A stretch of DNA of 24,212 nt from an archaeon (GTDB taxonomy: Archaea; EX4484-52; B79-G9), in NCBI GenBank assembly GCA_043813875.1, contig JBDRKP010000030.1, positions 1 through 24,212 on the forward strand, written 5' to 3'. This document shows, piece by piece, positions 2,564-22,890 of the stretch. Each line of letters opens with the position of its first letter. Position 1 is the stretch's first letter. The position numbers and the translations under genes are program-made. The notes below the pieces were generated by a model. That model was not told the DNA's origin. It worked only from the letters and a program-made list of their open reading frames with translations, and ran no database searches.

Positions 2564-3811
2564 ATGAGACTAAGCAAATGCTTCAGGCACGCCTTCAACA
2601 TAGTGCTGCATAGCAAGTTGAGAAGCTGGCTTACCATAATCGGGATAGTGATCGGCGTCGCTTCAGTGATCGCCATAATGTCGCTTGGGCAGGGCATGCA
2701 GCAGACGATGAGCTCCCAGCTGGGTGGCCTTGGAGGCGATATCATAACAATATCCCCGGGCTTTTCCAGGGGAGGAAACATTTTCCAGATGAGAGGCAAC
2801 GACAACAGGGGAGGAGGTTCCTCCACAGCCCAGGCGACAGGAAAAGAGATAACACTCACCCGTACAGACGTACAGGTCTTAAGAGGGATACCCGACGTAT
2901 CACTCATCGATACAAACATCCGTGGAAGCGTGAAAGTATCCTACCTTGGAAAGACAGGAAGCGTCTCACTCACCGGAGTAGACCAGAAAGTGTGGTCAAA
3001 GATCACCACCGCCAGTATAAAAGAAGGCAGGATGCTTGACTCCGCCGACCAGAATGTGGTGGTCATCGGAGGAAGGCTCGCATCCACGTATTTCGAGCGT
3101 CCGCTGGGCCTGAACAAGATGATCACAATAGGCGGAAATGCCTTCCGCATAGTAGGGATTCTTGACGACCAGAGCACGAATATCTATATGCCCATCCAGA
3201 TGGCATACCAGGTGATTGAGGACAAGGAGACCAATGTCTATGACACTCTCGTCGTCAGGATAAGGGACGAAAACCTCCTGGACGACTCGATAGCAAAGAT
3301 CGACAGCAGGCTCATGCTTGCAAGGCATGTGACAAACAAGACAAAAGACTTCTCAATCAGCTCAAACAAGCAGATGCAGGAAGCAAGATCAGAAGCCATG
3401 AGCACCATGAGCCTATTCCTGGTAGCGATTGCTGCGGTCTCGCTCATAGTCGGCGCCATAGGCGTCGCGAACACCATGTTCACGTCCGTCCTTGAGAAGA
3501 CAAAAGAGATAGGCATCATGAAAGCCATAGGCGCAAGAAACAAAGACATACTTATGATATTCCTCCTCAATGCCGCGCTCATCGGCCTCATCGGGGGCGT
3601 GCTCGGCGTACTCCTGGGAGCGCTGCTCTCAGAATCAATGACAACGCTACTCGGCGGCGGCACACCGATGATAAGAGGAGGGACATTGGTCACCATGGAC
3701 TCTGTGATCCTTGCTTTGTCTGTCTCAGTCAGCGCAGGAATAATCGCCGGATTCATACCCGCATACCAGGCATCAAGGCTGAAGCCGGTAGACGCGCTGA
3801 GATTCGAATAG
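2564..3811 (+). CDS. ABC transporter permease (MacB/FtsX/SalY type)
   Basis: RSWLTIIGIVIGVASVIA, GVANTMFTSVLEKTKEIGIMKAIGA and C-terminal PAYQASRLKPVDALRFE motifs. Confidence 0.95.
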   Translation: MRLSKCFRHAFNIVLHSKLRSWLTIIGIVIGVASVIAIMSLGQGMQQTMSSQLGGLGGDIITISPGFSRGGNIFQMRGNDNRGGGSSTAQATGKEITLTRTDVQVLRGIPDVSLIDTNIRGSVKVSYLGKTGSVSLTGVDQKVWSKITTASIKEGRMLDSADQNVVVIGGRLASTYFERPLGLNKMITIGGNAFRIVGILDDQSTNIYMPIQMAYQVIEDKETNVYDTLVVRIRDENLLDDSIAKIDSRLMLARHVTNKTKDFSISSNKQMQEARSEAMSTMSLFLVAIAAVSLIVGAIGVANTMFTSVLEKTKEIGIMKAIGARNKDILMIFLLNAALIGLIGGVLGVLLGALLSESMTTLLGGGTPMIRGGTLVTMDSVILALSVSVSAGIIAGFIPAYQASRLKPVDALRFE

Positions 3812-8643: not shown

Positions 8644-8726
8644 ACACAAGCTAAAAATGCCGTAGTCATTAGAAGCGCTCTTTTTTTATCCCAACGTTCA
8701 ATACCGCGACATTATGCCTTGGTTCT

Positions 8727-8765
8727 TATAGCGGATTTCAGTAATTTATTTGTACATCAACTATA
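8727..8765. repeat. Degenerate short member of the TATA-bounded palindromic element family
   Basis: TATAG...CTATA imperfect hairpin. 8754-8766 is the exact reverse complement of 12706-12718. AATTTATTTGT-N6-ACTATA is shared with 14962-14984. Confidence 0.6.
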
Positions 8766-8830
8766 TTAACCGCCTTGACCTAAAAATATCTGTTACACTA
8801 TTGATAGACTAAGGAAAAGGGAGATAATCA

Positions 8831-9466
8831 ATGACACTTCTATTGAACCAGATAATCCAGACCTCATTCAAGCATGGCTGGTTCTATCACTACCGCATAA
8901 ACGTCGCCCACATGGAAAACCACTGCAACAACGGCTTCTCGAACCTCAGGTCATACCTGACAAGAGTCTTTGACCTCTGCCCCGACGAGAAATTCAGCGA
9001 AGGCCCAAGATCATCTGCCTTGAAATTCCCTATTCCCGCGCCATTAAAAGAAGACAGCACGCACACAGTATGCGCTCAGGCAAAAGAAGGCCTTGCGACA
9101 ATGGACACCTACAGGACCGCCCATTCCAAAGTCCAGGTATACATGCTAAAAAAAGACAGGAACACAATAGCGATTGAAGTCCCCCTGTGGCTCGACTCCT
9201 TCGAATACCCCCGCTTCAGGGACCTCTTCGGCTGCGACGGCGCACTGAGCGGTCACATAGACGTCCTCAAAGTATTAGACAACAAGATACAGATCCTTGA
9301 CTACAAGCCCAAAGCCCACAAGGAAAAATACGCCGCCACCCAGACATACTTCTACGCCCTCATGCTCGCCACAAGGACAGGGATCCCGCTGGAAAAGATG
9401 GAATGCGGCTACTTCGACGACAGCACATCCTACTTCTTCGACCCGTCATCCGTGATGCTCTCATAA
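8831..9466 (+). CDS. PD-(D/E)XK nuclease family protein (RecB/Cas4-like core)
   Basis: E(VPLW)...GHIDVL...ILDYKP...QTYFYA catalytic pattern. Confidence 0.8.
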   Translation: MTLLLNQIIQTSFKHGWFYHYRINVAHMENHCNNGFSNLRSYLTRVFDLCPDEKFSEGPRSSALKFPIPAPLKEDSTHTVCAQAKEGLATMDTYRTAHSKVQVYMLKKDRNTIAIEVPLWLDSFEYPRFRDLFGCDGALSGHIDVLKVLDNKIQILDYKPKAHKEKYAATQTYFYALMLATRTGIPLEKMECGYFDDSTSYFFDPSSVMLS

Positions 9467-9523
9467 AAAAGGAATCAGGCCTTTCATGCCGACAAGAGCC
9501 TCATAATTCTTCGTCTCATACAT
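9461..9523 (-). pseudogene. 20-codon ORF with a strong RBS; possible 5' relic of an Fe/Mn superoxide dismutase
   Basis: GGAGG (9536-9532) precedes ATG. Translates MYETKNYEALVGMKGLIPFL*. The first 15 aa resemble SOD N-termini of the YEAKNY..L.G..GFS type (from memory). Confidence 0.4.
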
Positions 9524-9698
9524 AACCTACGCCTCCGTGACATTAACGATAGATAATATATATTGCACACGCAAAAATTTAAACAGGTGACAAGGACGGC
9601 GTATATCCATTTTTGAATCTAAAAACAATATGCTATCTGGAATATAACCTCTTGATTTTTAGCAAAGTAATTTAAAACTGCGACAAACAAAACAAAGC

Positions 9699-10232
9699 AT
9701 GAGGCTCATCAAGTTGACCGGGACATTGAATAACAGTTTCGGCAACGAAGAGATACTTCTGCGTGTTCTGGACGCGGGCGCATACAATGCAGCGATAATG
9801 TCCCGCGAGATAGTGGTCGAATCAGCAAGAGACTATCTGCCGAGCATAAAAGACGCCATGCGGGTAATGAACATAACCGACATCAGGGCAAGAGAAGCAT
9901 CGATAATCGAATCCACAGTCAGCCACGCCGGCGACGGTCTGGACCCGAACAAGTGCATCAAGATTTCCATGGCACCCGGGACTCGCCTCACAGGCGTGAA
10001 ATTTCTCGGCATGACATTCACCAAAGGCTTCAGGGACAACACATTCACAGACACCGACATACTTATATCCAATTCCCAGAAAGTCATAAAGAACATACTC
10101 AAAAAAGCAGGCATAACGGATGTCCTCGTATCAGTCGAATACAAAAGGACAAGCGAAGATCTGGATTTAGCCCTGGAGCTGGCGACAATCAACACCATTG
10201 TCAACACGAACGGCATCACCCAGCTTCTCTAG
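9699..10232 (+). CDS. Hypothetical protein
   Basis: 177-aa ORF with host-like codon usage and an upstream TTTAAAA box. No confident family. Confidence 0.75.
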   Translation: MRLIKLTGTLNNSFGNEEILLRVLDAGAYNAAIMSREIVVESARDYLPSIKDAMRVMNITDIRAREASIIESTVSHAGDGLDPNKCIKISMAPGTRLTGVKFLGMTFTKGFRDNTFTDTDILISNSQKVIKNILKKAGITDVLVSVEYKRTSEDLDLALELATINTIVNTNGITQLL

Positions 10233-10404
10233 CGATTATTGATCCGCTGGATTATTAATATGACTGCTTTTCCATGGCCTTCAATGCCTTGATATACACA
10301 TTTCTTACGCCGTTATTCTTTTCCTCTTTTATTGTGTATAAATTATCTGATGATTCCTACAACGACCGCTACAGATAGAAAAAACAAAAAAACAGGAAAG
10401 CGGA

Positions 10405-11352
10405 CTATTCATCTTTTCTTTCCTTTCGGGACTTGTCATTCTCTTGCGCCTTGCGCTCGACTTCTTCCTCGATGCCGAGCTTCTCCACAAGATCCTTGTA
10501 CCTGTTCCTGATAGTTACCTCAGTGACGCCGACGACATCCGCGATATCTCTCTGTGTCCTCTTCTCGCCCTCGAGCACCGCCGCGATATACAATCCCGCA
10601 GCAGCAACACCAGTCGGACCTTTTCCTGAAGTGACCTCTTCATCAAGGGCATTCTTCAGGATCTCCTTGGCTTTCGCCTGGACCTGTCCTGAAAGCCCAA
10701 GAAGCGATGCGAATCTTGGCAGGTACTCTTCAGAAGTCGCAGGCAGTATCCTTATACCCAGTTCCCTTGCGACGTACCTGTAAGCACGTCCGATCTCGCG
10801 CTTCTCGATACCGGAAGCAGCCGCAAGTTCAGACAGAGTCCTTGGCGAACCCTGCTCGCGCGCAACCGCATAGATGATAGCAGTGATGATGGACTCCATA
10901 GACCGCCCGCGCACAAGCCCCTTCGTGACCGCCTTCTCATAAAGCCGCCCTACTTCCTCGTGCACAGACTTGGGCAGGCCAAGATACGACACCTGCCTTG
11001 CCAGTTCCGAAAGAGAATATGACAGATTCCTGTCCTTGGACTTCGTAAGTCTCTTGTTCCATTTCCTTAACCTGTAATACTGCGCCCTCTTCTTGATAGG
11101 CACCTTGTAAAGCTCACCCACGCCTTTGCCGATCTCAGTGGATATGCCTTTATCATGCTTCGTAAACGTCAGAGGAGCGCCTGTCCTCGTCCTCATTGCC
11201 TGTTGCTGCGCATCGAACGCGCGCCATTCAGGTGTAGTATCAATCTCATCCTGCTCAATGACCCTGCCGCACTTGTTGCAGGTAAGTTCACCACGACCTT
11301 CATCCCTTGAAAAACTCTTACCTTTGCATTCCGGACATTCTGCTGTTGCCAT
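10405..11352 (-). CDS. tfb: Transcription initiation factor IIB
   Basis: Zn ribbon CPEC...CNKCG, PEWRAF B-reader, two cyclin repeats (LVRGRS, TSGKGPTGVAAA, TQRDIA..VGVTEVTIRNRYK). GGTAGGTGG RBS before ATG 11352. Confidence 0.97.
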   Translation of the reverse strand: MATAECPECKGKSFSRDEGRGELTCNKCGRVIEQDEIDTTPEWRAFDAQQQAMRTRTGAPLTFTKHDKGISTEIGKGVGELYKVPIKKRAQYYRLRKWNKRLTKSKDRNLSYSLSELARQVSYLGLPKSVHEEVGRLYEKAVTKGLVRGRSMESIITAIIYAVAREQGSPRTLSELAAASGIEKREIGRAYRYVARELGIRILPATSEEYLPRFASLLGLSGQVQAKAKEILKNALDEEVTSGKGPTGVAAAGLYIAAVLEGEKRTQRDIADVVGVTEVTIRNRYKDLVEKLGIEEEVERKAQENDKSRKERKDE

Positions 11353-11395
11353 AGCCAAGCCACCTACCAATATAGAAAAAGCCATTAACGATTCA

Positions 11396-11446
11396 TTTAT
11401 AAAGCTTTTGATTACAATTATATATAGAAAGATTTATAAACCTTTC
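11396..11446 (-). promoter_or_regulatory. Two tandem BRE/TATA boxes upstream of tfb; the distal one is near-palindromic
   Basis: Minus strand CAAAAGC-TTTATAAA (11410-11396) and GAAAGG-TTTATAAA within GAAAGATTTATAAACCTTTC (11427-11446). Confidence 0.6.
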
Positions 11447-11500
11447 GGTTCATCCGGAAACAATGGTTCCAAAAAACGTGTAGCGCAAGACTCAAACACC

Positions 11501-11974
11501 TCACCTTTTTTTATGGTGCCGGTGTTTTTTCACGACCTTTTTAGCATTATCCGCATCATCCGGCTTCTTATCCTTCACCTCTTTCCTGCCGCCAAAACCC
11601 AGCAGCCAGTAAAGGAACTTCGACAAGAGCACAAATGGGTACAACAGGATACTGACTGCACCCAAAAACAGCTTAGAGGAATTATAGAATAATTTGAACA
11701 CTTCATAAAGGACATAAAGGACAACCCCCGCTGATGCATAAAACAGGATAAGATCAACCGTTATGTCCATGGCATATCCAAAAAACCTGTTCAGGATGAA
11801 TGGAAATGAAGCAGAAATGACCGCGATGATGATTGCGTTTTTAAGCACATTGAATACCTTATAGGCGACAATGATAAAGACAAGAAAGATCAAGAACATT
11901 ATCTTTACATCAGGATATCCTGCATCCGTCAAGTCATTGAACATACCGCTGATGTTTGTCTCCATAAAATCCAC
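11501..11974 (-). CDS. Hypothetical multi-pass membrane protein
   Basis: Three to four hydrophobic helices and a basic C-terminal tail. Abuts the upstream gene stop. Alternative start at 11965. Confidence 0.75.
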   Translation of the reverse strand: MDFMETNISGMFNDLTDAGYPDVKIMFLIFLVFIIVAYKVFNVLKNAIIIAVISASFPFILNRFFGYAMDITVDLILFYASAGVVLYVLYEVFKLFYNSSKLFLGAVSILLYPFVLLSKFLYWLLGFGGRKEVKDKKPDDADNAKKVVKKHRHHKKR

Positions 11975-12658
11975 TCATACGCTTGGCGCTCTGAAAAAAT
12001 CAAAATCAAGCCGCCCGTCACCATTGATGATGACATGATCCTTATAATACTGTATTTCACCATCAAAATAAGAAAGATCGAACTTCCTGTTGTTCAGCGG
12101 AATATTGGCGGAACTTCCATCGACAAATATCTCGACATTGCCGGTGACATTATAAAGGACCAAAGACTGCCCTTGTAACTTGCTCAAAAATACTTTGGAA
12201 AACACCACATCATTGCCTGACACAGAGACAGACTTCTCCTTCGAAAGCGTATTATTGTCTGCCCTCACCCTTTTAGAAGATCCTGAAAAAATAAGCTTCT
12301 CCGACAGATGCACATTGCCGATATAATCTATGAACTCGATGTGGCTGTCACCAGGCGATCTTAAAGACAACCCGTTGATAATGAACTTGCTTTCAGGGCC
12401 CACGTAATCGACATAAAATGAATCGACTTCATCATCGAACGCAAAATCAATCTTCTGGTCCTTCTCAAACGAAAGCTCTGCCCTGAACGGGACAGTCTCC
12501 TTCTCATTGCCGACATACTTCAGGACAAAGCCGACAGGGTTATTTATGGCTGATCCTGCCTTTTCATCAATCAGGGTATTGTCCGATAAAAAAACGAACA
12601 CCGCTGCAACTGCCGCTATGAAAAGGGCTGCTGTGACAACGAATATTTTTTCGACCAT
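11975..12658 (-). CDS. Hypothetical N-terminally anchored, beta-rich surface protein
   Basis: One N-terminal TM helix followed by a beta-strand-like domain. Start 12658 or 12667. Confidence 0.75.
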   Translation of the reverse strand: MVEKIFVVTAALFIAAVAAVFVFLSDNTLIDEKAGSAINNPVGFVLKYVGNEKETVPFRAELSFEKDQKIDFAFDDEVDSFYVDYVGPESKFIINGLSLRSPGDSHIEFIDYIGNVHLSEKLIFSGSSKRVRADNNTLSKEKSVSVSGNDVVFSKVFLSKLQGQSLVLYNVTGNVEIFVDGSSANIPLNNRKFDLSYFDGEIQYYKDHVIINGDGRLDFDFFRAPSV

Positions 12659-12706
12659 AAGATTCACAAGCTATTTAGCAATTTTATTATTATGAAGCTA
12701 TTTATA

Positions 12707-12855
12707 TATAGTTGATGTCGTTACTAGCTGGACAAATATGACTCCATGAACCGATAGACATCAACTGTATGGAAAAGTCATCTGTCCATTTTGAGGACGA
12801 AGTCCTCGAAAGCTTGGCATGTAAGTGCCATGAAAAAGTTATGACTTTTACTATA
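12707..12855. mobile_element. Structured MITE/REP-like element, long copy 1
   Basis: TATAGT...ACTATA ends. Inverted repeats 12706-12719/12757-12770 and 12773-12781/12841-12849. Core TTTTGAGGAC-GAA-GTCCTCGAAA-GCT-TGGCAT-GTAA-GTGCCA-TGA is shared with 15955-15996. Confidence 0.7.
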
Positions 12856-12994
12856 TATATAAATTCCCATGTTCAAATAGTAAGTGTTTGCATAGTTTAC
12901 CATTATATCAACAAAAACCTTAAAAACCAAAGATAATGATATATTTATATAAAGATTTACACATTACAAGAAGTTACTAAGTACTAAGTTACAG

Positions 12995-14185
12995 ATGATT
13001 TCTATGTTTGAAAACATTTTAGGCGGGGATAACAGTCTGATTGGAACGATCACATCAATCATATTCCTGTTGTTCATCATATTCTACCAGAAGATCATGG
13101 TGATGCAGACACTTTGGAGAGCTGAAAAGGATCTCAAGAAACTGGACGAATACACAAAAAAAGCCGAAGGATACGTGTTGAACAGTATCTCAAAAAAGCC
13201 GGACAAGAAACTGAAGCATGACATAAGCAACTTCATGAATTTCTTTATCTCGACACCAGTAGACATAGATCCATATGGCATCCTGAACAAGATTGAGCAT
13301 ATCATGAACCAGTCCGAAAGGAGATTCAACTACTTTGTCGATACCGTCGCACCAAAGCAGAATGAAGTCGAGAAAGCGAACATCAAATTCGGGCTTATCG
13401 GCGCTCTCGGCGTTTACCAGATATACAAAATCGTAAGACATCTGATAATAACAGTCAGGAAGACAAACAATATTCAGATGGTGCTCGTGCTCCAGATGTA
13501 CATGCCGCTATTGCTGAAGATGGCAAAAGGCAACGTCAAGGCGACCCAGGCATTCGTCAAGGGCATACCGATCGGCGATGCGATCGGTCCCATGATAGCA
13601 GCATCATTCATGACAACAGAAGGTGAAGAGATAGCAAAGGACGTCCTCGTAAGCAAAGAGAAGATAGAAGGCAAGACCGTTTTCGTGATGAAAGCGAAAG
13701 GCCCTGGAGCATCGCTTGGCAAGCTCGGGAAAGCTGTGGAAGCGCTGAGGGAAAAGGAGAACATAGACCACATAATCACAGTAGACGCAGCCGGCAAGAT
13801 GGAAGGCGAAGAGACCGGATCGATAGCAGAAGGCGTAGGCGTCATGATGGGCGGCGTAGGCGTAGAGCGCTCAAAGATCGAAGAAGTCGCTCTAGAGCAC
13901 GACCTGCCTCTCGACGGTGTCGCGATAAAGATGGGCGTCATGGAAGCATCAGCCCCGCTTCCGGAAAAAGTGTTCAAGGCGCAAGTTGAGGCAAGAGACA
14001 TAGTCAAGCGCCTCATCAAGGAGACGAAAAGCAAGAAGATCATGCTCCTTGGCGTCGGAAACTCATGCGGGATAGGGAATACGAAAGAAAGCCTCAAAGG
14101 ACTTGAAGAGAAGCTTAAGCCTATCTGGGTGAAGCAGAAGAAGGAAGAAGAAGAAGAAAAAAAGGAAGAAAGCGGCTTTTTCTAG
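12995..14185 (+). CDS. DUF1512-family conserved archaeal protein
   Basis: N-terminal TM, PVDIDPYGI..KIEH, GIPIGDAIGP, IITVDAAGKMEGEETGSIAEGVGV, GVGNSCGI motifs. Confidence 0.85.
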   Translation: MISMFENILGGDNSLIGTITSIIFLLFIIFYQKIMVMQTLWRAEKDLKKLDEYTKKAEGYVLNSISKKPDKKLKHDISNFMNFFISTPVDIDPYGILNKIEHIMNQSERRFNYFVDTVAPKQNEVEKANIKFGLIGALGVYQIYKIVRHLIITVRKTNNIQMVLVLQMYMPLLLKMAKGNVKATQAFVKGIPIGDAIGPMIAASFMTTEGEEIAKDVLVSKEKIEGKTVFVMKAKGPGASLGKLGKAVEALREKENIDHIITVDAAGKMEGEETGSIAEGVGVMMGGVGVERSKIEEVALEHDLPLDGVAIKMGVMEASAPLPEKVFKAQVEARDIVKRLIKETKSKKIMLLGVGNSCGIGNTKESLKGLEEKLKPIWVKQKKEEEEEKKEESGFF

Positions 14186-14280
14186 TGGCGCAAAATCTCT
14201 TCTATTCAAACTAATTAATTAGTCTTTATAGGTAGTTACAGAAGTTAAATTTATAAAGAATCACCTTCTTCTAAGTTATT

Positions 14281-14904
14281 ATGGGCAATAAATCCATTGA
14301 ATTAATGCTATCTACCAGAGAATGGCTTAATCAATCGACACCTCTAATAACATATAAAATAACATATGACCCATCACCTTATCAATCTGCAAAATTAGAC
14401 GCCAGAACATTAATGTTCTTTGAGGGTATTTCTTTAGGGAAGTTAAATGTTAGTGAAGATGTAAGAACGCCCATAACATTGAAAAAATCTGGAAAATTGA
14501 GCTTAAGAGATCCAAAGCCAAAAATACCAGATTATTTAAGTCATGTTTTATCAACATTATCTGCATTAGTTGGTTTTGGAACTTCTTTAGATCCAGAAAA
14601 AATCTATCATGGTCTTAGTGGAATATACAACGAATATAAAGGCCGGACTGAACTTGTAAAGCGTGATTGGGATTTAGTATTTAATGAAGGATATGGATAT
14701 GATGAGTTAAATGGGCCAATTGGTACTTGCACTTACGAAGCGAAGAAATATTCACCAAGATCAAAACATGGTCTAAAGGTTATGGAAGAATTTGAAAAAG
14801 AAACAGGCGTAGATTTATCTTCACTAAGTGAAAAGGTTCAAATTGATTTAATAAATACTCATTTCCTCGATATAAATGTTATAGTGAAGGCAAGAAATAA
14901 ATGA
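14281..14904 (+). CDS. Hypothetical protein in an AT-rich island
   Basis: 207-aa ORF with A/T-ending codons and an upstream TTTATAAA box. No motif recognised. Confidence 0.7.
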   Translation: MGNKSIELMLSTREWLNQSTPLITYKITYDPSPYQSAKLDARTLMFFEGISLGKLNVSEDVRTPITLKKSGKLSLRDPKPKIPDYLSHVLSTLSALVGFGTSLDPEKIYHGLSGIYNEYKGRTELVKRDWDLVFNEGYGYDELNGPIGTCTYEAKKYSPRSKHGLKVMEEFEKETGVDLSSLSEKVQIDLINTHFLDINVIVKARNK

Positions 14905-15241
14905 ACAAATTTCAACAAGAAATCAACTTGCCTTCATCTATATGGCAAGGCACAAATACTCAATTTATTTGTGCCTTGACTATAGTTATGAAATACCAAA
15001 AGACATGATTGAAAAAGTATTTAGTGTTAAAGCAGAAAAAACTTCAGGTTCTCAGAATCCTTCAATAGTTTTATGGACGAATATTGATCCAAGATTTTTA
15101 AACCCTGACACTTCAAATATAGAACATCGAATCTATACTCTTACTTCATTTAAAGGTGATGCAGAAATATATCAAAACATATTAGATATAGCTGGTCCAA
15201 AATACCCGAAAGATAGTAGAATTATGGGGTATTCCCCTTGA
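14901..15241 (+). pseudogene. Hypothetical gene interrupted by a 44-bp hairpin insertion (ORF track starts it at 14942, inside the insert)
   Basis: ATG 14901 is coupled to the upstream TGA. Deleting 14941-14984 gives MNKFQQEINLPSSSYEIPKD... open to 15241. Confidence 0.55.
14939..14984. mobile_element. Minimal member of the palindromic element family
   Basis: TATATGG-CAAGGCACAAATA-ctcaatt-TATTTGTGCCTTG-ACTATA: a perfect 13-bp inverted repeat with the same flanks as the right halves of the long copies. Confidence 0.7.
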
Positions 15242-15527
15242 AGGTGGTCGTTTATTCTATTGTCAAGTTAATGGACTGCATAAACAGACTACCTCCTGAA
15301 ATACCAAATATAATATTCACAACAAACATTATATATTTTATTACTGATAGGACACAAAAATAAAATACTCGTCACATTCAGTGAAAGAAATACAGGTAAT
15401 TGTCGTACATTCCAGCTCAAATAATAGTCGATTGACGAATTCATCATACAAAGTATGATAAAGTTTATAAATACCTCATTCTAATCATTCAACAGAGCAA
15501 GTCCGAAGATTAAGATAGCTCAAGTAA

Positions 15528-15901
15528 GATATATCCAGAATAGACTCTGCTATTAGCCCATAGGACACAACCGCATACAAAAATGGACATAGAAAAGAGC
15601 CCGAGTTTTTGTAAACAAAAAACAATAGACTCAGCTATAGCCCAAAGAAACAGATACCGAAGAGGACTAGGCCATGAGCCGGAAAGTCAGGACATATCCA
15701 GACTAGACCCCCCTTATGCCATAAGAAACACAAGACCTGTGGCAACGCCCTAAAGAAAGCCGGAATACACAGACATAGACATACCCATAGGCCGCACAAA
15801 GAAAGCAGATTTAAACCGCCAGGTCCTCCAGGGAACCACAAAAGCAGCACACGACGGACTGGAAAAAGAAGCCAAGGCCAGAAGCATGGATTCAGCTATA
15901 G
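15528..15901 (+). repeat. Degenerate direct repeats (ATAGAC-TCAGCTATAGCCC-like) in a non-coding or decayed region
   Basis: Related motifs start at 15540, 15625, 15703, 15775 and 15886. Confidence 0.45.
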
Positions 15902-16063
15902 TCAATCCAATGACTATTGGATTATTGGATTGAGTATATGGGAATCCAACACTGTTTTGAGCTTTGCTCAAAAGCTTGGCACGATTAGTGCCATGATTTC
16001 CAACTTTGTTGGAAAGCTTCGAACGCAAGTGAGATGAGATCAAAAGTTGTTGGATTCACTATA
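15897..16063. mobile_element. Structured MITE/REP-like element, long copy 2 with two core modules
   Basis: Terminal inverted repeat GCTATAGTCAATCCAA / TTGGATTCACTATAGC (15 of 16 match). Internal IRs 15897-15911/15924-15938 and 15942-15951/16048-16057. Two hairpin-AAAGCTT-hairpin-TGA modules. Confidence 0.75.
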
Positions 16064-22726: not shown

Positions 22727-22890
22727 TCAACCACCCAATATAATATTTGTCAAAGTTCCTTATATAATTGACATCGTCTATGAAATAACAAATTTCACCA
22801 AAAACCAAAAGAGGTCAAATATATGGAAACGCCATGAGTATAATAGTTATGGCGTTAACAATATAATTTACAAATGAGCGCCCAATAAAC

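Follow-up and report, generated by a model that had tools for sequence, protein, structure and literature searches.

The window analysed here, the whole 24,212-nt contig JBDRKP010000030.1 (C30) of an archaeal genome (G000; assembly GCA_043813875.1, 1.64 Mb in 90 contigs, 91.5% complete), carries three true copies and one degenerate copy of a short mobile element with a hairpin at each end. The element is mobile, inserts at the dinucleotide TA and duplicates it, and four independent lines of evidence agree on this. [quoted passage not shown] An initial annotation of the window had proposed a non-autonomous mobile element of an undescribed family, conserved in fold and with no transposase in the window. 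Many copies, empty sites and TA duplication bear this out, both hairpins covary, and no transposase lies within the window. The family matches no Rfam covariance model (whole window, both strands, E ≤ 1), and a search of the searchable literature on three of its characteristic strings returned no description of it, with the ISfinder and census sequence files lying outside that comparison.

The three true copies, all on the plus strand, are built as TATAGT-(left hairpin)-(A/T)CTATATGG-(right hairpin)-ACTATA. With the insertion borders marked by slashes, the unit reads TA/TAGT-(left hairpin, conserved A-rich loop)-CTA TA TGG-(right hairpin)-ACTA/TA. The frame TATGG...ACTATA had already been recognised around three stem pairs, AAAAGTCAT/ATGACTTTT (12773/12841), GAATCCAACA/TGTTGGATTC (15942/16048) and CAAGGCACAAATA/TATTTGTGCCTTG (14946/14966), and all three were confirmed in frame and position. 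Copy A (12707–12855, 149 nt) runs from TATAGT (12707–12712) through left-hairpin arms TTGATGTC (12712–12719) and GACATCAA (12757–12764), TATGG (12768–12772) and right-hairpin arms (12773–12781 and 12841–12849) to ACTATA (12850–12855). It matches a covariance model of the family with E 1.2e-6 over its left part, and with E 9.2e-12 as a whole element in the genome search. Copy B (15897–16063, 167 nt) has its left hairpin at 15902–15933, TATGG at 15937–15941, right arms at 15942–15951 and 16048–16057 and ACTATA at 16058–16063. Copy C (14880–14984; model E 1.7e-18) represents the minimal form of 105 nt, with left hairpin 14885–14936, TATGG 14941–14945, right arms 14946–14958 and 14966–14978 and ACTATA 14979–14984. 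It had been described as a short copy without a left hairpin, beginning near 14939, which is wrong: like the others it has a TATAGT and a left hairpin, and these put its start at 14880.

The initial annotation counted four copies between 8727 and 16063. Three of them are the copies above, and the fourth, at 8727–8775, is a non-member or at most an unrecognisable remnant. It gave no covariance model match at E ≤ 10 with filters off, the fold of 8715–8790 is unremarkable (z −1.25, 17 of 200 shuffles equally good), and its likeness to the family is limited to the 13-nt ACATCAACTATAT. A real degenerate copy lies outside that span on the plus strand, at 22763–22863, between two minus-strand genes. 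It reads TATAAT ... ACAATATA, has two mismatches in the left stem and matches the model with E 4.2e-12.

Insertion at TA can be read directly at four sites. Four genomes of the genus (G001, G003, G004 and G005) precisely lack copy A at the orthologous site between genes and read CTATTAATATATAT-(A/G)GTTCCCAT where the window reads CTATTTATATA(TAGT...ACTA)TATATAAATTCCCAT. On contig C24 of G000 a copy interrupts one member of a paralogous gene family, and the junctions GGCCAAT-TA(element)TA-CATCAAG have a paralogous empty site on C37, GGCCAAC-TA-CATCAAG. The third site is on C42, where a type-A copy lies inside the left loop of a copy of another subfamily, whose intact counterpart stands at C34:20640–20733; the junctions, CATAAC-TA-TTTAG versus CATAAC-TA(..)TA-TTCAC, show one TA becoming two. 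Finally, if copy C is excised but one TA is left behind, a loss of 103 nt, the open reading frames (ORFs) 14281..14904 and 14942..15241 fuse into a 285-aa frame; excision at 105 nt gives a frame of only 201 aa and no fusion. The flanks to the left of the TA are not conserved among copies.

Two of these sites have features of their own. The paralogous family has three copies (C24:8934–9038, C37:~1300–1630 and C38:3295–3541) that are 87–89% identical over ~200 nt. The split 285-aa gene (14281–15241) lies in a low-GC stretch (GC 0.31–0.36 over 14001–15500), and its first 200 aa matched nothing in Pfam, and the 42 genomes of the order yielded no homologue of them.

There is strong covariation in both hairpins. 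Among 20 copies within G000, in a MAFFT-based alignment, 15 of the 22 pairs are compensated. In a second set, 29 distinct copies taken from other genomes, the paired share of cells is 98.4%, versus 78.7% in shuffles and 32–42% with slid partners. Alterations on both sides are seen at 17 of the 22 pairs and in 116 cells; no shuffle in 500 reached any of the five covariation measures. The 29-copy alignment was fitted to the model and hence leans to structure, a minor concern given the effect size and the MAFFT-based result. The RNA folds of the three true loci are likewise far more stable than shuffles (z −5.55, −5.95 and −6.83, equalled by 0 of 200). Left-stem and right-stem variants combine freely and vary independently, and therefore the conserved property is complementarity inside each hairpin and not a shared protein-binding word.

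The stems had been called unrelated. They are instead subfamily variants of one alignable family, across which the left-hairpin loop is conserved while loops otherwise differ between copies, and the outer arms are ordinary imperfect terminal inverted repeats. TATAGT/ACTATA are near-invariant (a few copies have TATACT or ACTGTA), and the inverted repeat extends in subfamilies B and C over 13–14 nt, in subfamily A over 13/18 nt. Arms in alignment set A4 are Watson-Crick paired in 584 of 634 cells, and 28 more are one invariant G.T pair. When this G.T pair of the closing helix TATGG/ACTATA is excluded, set A4 has 12 wobble cells and 2 A.C cells, spread over eight and two pairs, respectively, and set A1 has 1 and 0; the same count within G000 alone was too sparse and mixed with false hairpins. 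Folded as DNA, copy C is alike on both strands (−24.1 versus −23.7 kcal/mol).

In the genome of G000 a strict pattern (TATGG, a perfect 8–13 nt stem, its complement, then an ACTATA-like end) found 51 right-hand hairpin modules, and 46 complete elements could be delimited. These measure 84–474 nt, from a minimal form of ~105 nt to long copies with added hairpin cassettes; their length classes differ by whole cassettes, and none contains a long ORF. A covariance model, R1, built from 20 minimal copies of G000, gave 96 matches at E ≤ 0.01 in this genome, which correspond to ~80 loci once six opposite-strand matches and ~10 second halves of long copies are subtracted. Long B-type copies of identical sequence stand at contig ends (C17:1–208, C61:1–169, C28:22605–end and C87:4591–end), so the family is one cause of assembly breaks and its true copy number is probably higher. 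The unpaired left and right ends in the genome were searched for a long autonomous copy and none was found; the solo ends were artefacts, degenerate copies or contig ends.

The family is abundant in one lineage of very small DPANN archaea. R1 matched at E ≤ 0.001 in 21 of 61 genomes, G000 counted; with G000 left out, these are all 7 genomes of the genus (17 to at least 65 matches each), 13 of 15 in the family and 7 of 26 in further families of the order. None of 19 archaeal genomes from outside the order matched. When GTDB species genomes were scanned with a pattern, at least 116 loci were returned, mostly chance matches in bacteria; a strict filter for double hairpins retained 13. R1 matched 33 copies over 75 loci (12 from the R1 genome survey, 11 of an orthologous-locus set and 52 of the pattern-scan loci). 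Among the matches listed, the scan loci belong to metagenome-assembled genomes (MAGs) of Candidatus Nanohalarchaeota or Nanohaloarchaea, to 'uncultured archaeon' and to one Thermoplasmata MAG; GenBank places the relatives as 'Candidatus Nanohalarchaeota' MAGs. The left-end pattern had 62 matches in viral contigs, about the estimated chance number, and none of the 62 matched the model. The sequencing runs that have words in common with the window are groundwater metagenomes, with no RNA run listed among them. Four groundwater DNA runs yielded short low-depth contigs, mostly other copies of the family, that were uninformative on alleles at the window locus.

Copies are mostly intergenic and stand in either orientation: by crude ORF calls, 52 of 66 overlap no ORF by more than 30 nt. 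The 50 copies flanked by called genes on both sides lie between 28 tandem, 14 divergent and 8 convergent pairs (894, 246 and 255 in the genome as background). Beside co-directional genes 12 copies have the same and 16 the opposite orientation, that is, there is no bias. Copy A stands in a TATATATA run (window 12690–12712), upstream of the minus-strand gene 11975..12667 and ~30–40 nt from the start of that gene, and judging from the sequence the copy's terminal TATA would remake a TATA-box-like word on the side of that gene.

IS630/Tc1-mariner-type DDE transposases would move the element in trans, because transposons of the same lineage end in TA/TAG...CTA/TA and the terminus of one subfamily is nearly identical to theirs. 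Each outer arm would then be a terminal inverted repeat and at the same time half of a local hairpin, and compensatory change would keep the hairpins among spreading copy lineages. Since they are kept there, the fold, whether in single-stranded DNA, cruciform DNA or RNA, probably aids mobilisation and not the host. The element may be recognised by short ends plus secondary structure, as first suggested for these loci.

A candidate source of transposase is found in the congeneric genome G005, where an intact 346-aa ORF with HTH domains and DDE_3 (L035 976–2016) lies in a transposon bounded by TA/TAGCAATCCAATGAAG... and ...CTTGGTTTGCTA/TA. Four IS630-type transposons (in G005, G006, G018 and one metagenome contig) share the ends TA/TAGCA..CCAA..AAGT; a metagenome scan with the G005 transposase gave one locus. 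The left end of copy B, TATAGTCAATCCAATGA, and TATAG-CAATCCAATGA of the G005 left end (L035) align with one gap and agree in 16 of 17 nt (z 6.2, reached by none of 200 shuffles). The end of copy B is the best among the 2854 TATAG sites in the genome, of which the single 13/16 match and eight of the nine matches at 12/16 are MITE ends. The family had been set apart from IS630-type MITEs, which conserve terminal sequence, and for subfamily B, with this 16/17-nt terminus, that contrast fails.

A number of results weigh against mobilisation by such transposases. The ends of subfamilies A, C and D (TATAGTTGAC...-type) have no significant similarity to the transposon end (best z 0.5–2.4). The G005-type transposase was found in three of the 42 genomes from the order but not in G000, whose own IS630-like ORF (C62) was rejected as a partner, its ends being unrelated to the element. 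Among the three transposon genomes only G005 has B-type termini (two), and such termini occur with no detected transposon in G003 (12) and G001 (3), although these MAGs are 68–93% complete and the test is weak. G018 has the transposon yet no R1 match. The transposon ends are without fold (z about 0), so that the hairpins are a novelty of the MITE, and we know of no need for hairpins in a duplex-binding DDE transposase and of no fold requirement in the IS630/Tc1-mariner class. Lastly, the wobble excess suggests that one strand is read, which fits a mechanism in single-stranded DNA or RNA better than duplex recognition.

The alternative that survives best, if still an improbable one in our judgement, is that the covariation is a by-product, the near-palindromic arms of an ordinary MITE having been perfected repeatedly, either through intrastrand template switching or through fold-back synthesis during repair. 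Correction of quasi-palindromes is well established as a mutational process; it would account for arms that are almost perfectly Watson-Crick while loops differ between copies, and unfolded transposon ends are what is expected if the hairpins were made secondarily. Yet none of 49 distinct copies shows a 'correction' of the TATGG junction, its invariant G.T pair or its bulged A, mismatches have persisted in the degenerate copy at 22763, and templated correction predicts no wobble excess. Somewhat lower still we place a TA-duplicating, IS630-ended element whose spread needs folded ends read as a single strand, a hybrid of repeat recognition with the fold recognition of HUH and attC systems. Such an element would also carry and spread the hairpin-GCUU-hairpin-AUGA cassette, a possible protein- or RNA-level module with ~35 independent occurrences in the genome.

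We regard as quite unlikely a move by an IS200/IS605- or RAYT-type HUH/Y1 transposase that reads hairpins in single-stranded DNA, as for PATEs and REPINs, with the two similar same-strand hairpins as the recognised ends. Two hairpin ends on one strand with compensatory change, and an excess of G.T over A.C that suggests the reading of one strand, would suit it, and the genome has a partial Y1_Tnp gene at the end of contig C84. However, IS200/IS605 elements are not known to duplicate their target and require one of 4–5 nt, whereas here TA is duplicated at four independent sites, the left flanks beyond it are variable, and in G000 no Y1 or RAYT gene is flanked by the same hairpins. The Y1_Tnp gene was rejected as a partner since the hairpin that adjoins it is unrelated, no TnpB zinc-ribbon domain matched in G000, and subfamily B termini match the IS630-type end. 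The same kind of compensatory change is known from REPINs (PMC3116915) and speaks for the HUH reading.

We judge equally unlikely a structured small-RNA gene family or RNA regulatory module spread by duplication and selected for a host RNA function: the very strong covariation and fold z-scores, the wobble-pair excess, the conserved left loop and the fixed unpaired GCUU and AUGA of the cassettes would agree with it, but presence/absence polymorphism, insertion into coding frames, nesting, the lack of an orientation preference relative to neighbours, equal folding of both DNA strands, the absence of Rfam matches and the old copy at 22763, decayed alike in stem and termini, argue against it.

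The cassettes that lengthen the element are hairpin modules in the loop of the right hairpin. Copy A has one of 45 nt (12789–12833), TTTT-hairpin-AAA-GCTT-hairpin(GGCA..TGCC)-ATGA, which is missing from the near-identical copies C20:16535–16638 and C38:5540–5643 and present in C83:11337–11484. Copy B has a tandem pair (15955–15996 and 15997–16037), the second with a degenerate second hairpin, and the minimal B copies C44:6163–6246 and C44:6537–6620 lack both. Apart from the cassette, copies that have one and copies that lack it are almost identical, and cassettes may arise by insertion or internal duplication. The hairpin-AAGCTT-hairpin-ATGA module, noted in the initial annotation as hairpin-AAAGCTT-hairpin-TGA, is real at these three places; it is not private to these elements. 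Its pattern has 78 matches in the genome, versus 9–14 in shuffled genomes. Twenty-four of these lie within MITE copies, all in MITE orientation, and 35 lie in a separate element of ~75 nt with a T-run hairpin containing TATAAAG, followed by A-run-GCTT-GAAAT...ATTTC-ATGA-T-run. In full, this second dispersed family reads T-run-ATTGTGTATAAAGTATAT..GACAAT-A-run-GCTT-GAAAT(variable loop with CCAAT)ATTTC-ATGA-T-run, with a TATA-box-like word inside; examples are C49:9507–9617 (two in tandem), C11:2507–2616 and C24:9179–9215 (L234 2547–2583). The GCTT-hairpin-ATGA core is common to both families, and because they have this internal cassette in common, small structured modules appear to be shuffled between mobile elements.

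Cassette-like units (hairpin-AAAGCTTGCCAC..GTGGCATGATT) were also seen outside MITEs in A-rich, coding-looking DNA, on the minus strand of C44 (~1700–1860 and 3590–3750, counted from the other contig end) and at C47:6140–6200, where their loop lengths would shift the reading frame. K-turn, C/D-box and hammerhead readings of the cassette were discarded by eye, as the cassette has neither the tandem G.A pairs nor the CUGAnGA core that they require.

Other features of the window are few. A TFIIB gene lies at 10405–11385, two 60-nt direct repeats, 90% identical and probably within a coding region, stand in tandem at 171–290, and no tRNA or tmRNA was predicted in the window by ARAGORN. Upstream of copy B, ~650 nt (15242–15896) are A-rich with no plus-strand ORF of at least 60 aa; by eye they contain the word GA(C/T)TC(A/T)GCTAT(T)AG three times, the last touching the left end of copy B.

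MITEs as such are ordinary. What is noteworthy here is that two terminal hairpins covary independently in a TA-duplicating, IS630/Tc1-mariner-like passenger. The G005-type transposase and the B-type ends offer a testable pair in organisms with almost no experimental biology of mobile DNA. For practical purposes, copies break assemblies, split genes (14281–15241) and land beside putative TATA-box promoters, and we advise annotators to mask them.

Several known families resemble the element in part. Stowaway MITEs duplicate TA and are mobilised by Tc1/mariner transposases, pneumococcal BOX elements are built of modules in variable number, to our knowledge with no established transposase, and Correia elements end in TATAG...CTATA. 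Literature searches on MITEs in DPANN or other archaea returned bulk censuses only. One covers 8220 archaeal genomes and reports high MITE density in DPANN, with no family-level description in its accessible part (PMC11602168), and copies of the present element may stand unnamed in its sequence files. REPINs are replicating doublets that form hairpins in single strands, commonly show compensatory changes and nest in or beside other copies (PMC3116915). By that account they consist of two inverted REPs in one long hairpin, lack TA duplication and have an HUH partner, whereas the element has two tandem hairpins, TA duplication and an IS630-like terminus. Correia/NEMIS elements of Neisseria duplicate TA, insert next to promoters and occur in forms of 107 and 155 bp that differ by an internal block of ~50 bp (PMC2229807), a parallel to the 105- and 149-nt classes found here. 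As described there, however, they have conserved terminal repeats of 24–26 bp and an IHF site and are confined to Neisseria, while the arms of the element vary freely and stay complementary. A further likeness is to RUP of Streptococcus pneumoniae, which is ~107 bp long, is present in ~100 copies, targets TA and has ends like those of IS630-Spn1, its proposed mover in trans (Oggioni and Claverys 1999, as summarised in PMC2229807). In that summary RUP agrees with the element in size, copy number, TA target and repeats resembling IS630-family transposon ends; it differs in being bacterial and in its single-stem fold, where the element has a hairpin at each end, one subfamily matched to a transposon and variable cassettes. 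By analogy, then, the element would work like RUP with IS630-Spn1 and like Correia elements, with a conservation of fold that recalls REPINs: real, abundant and mechanistically somewhat odd, and not a new category.

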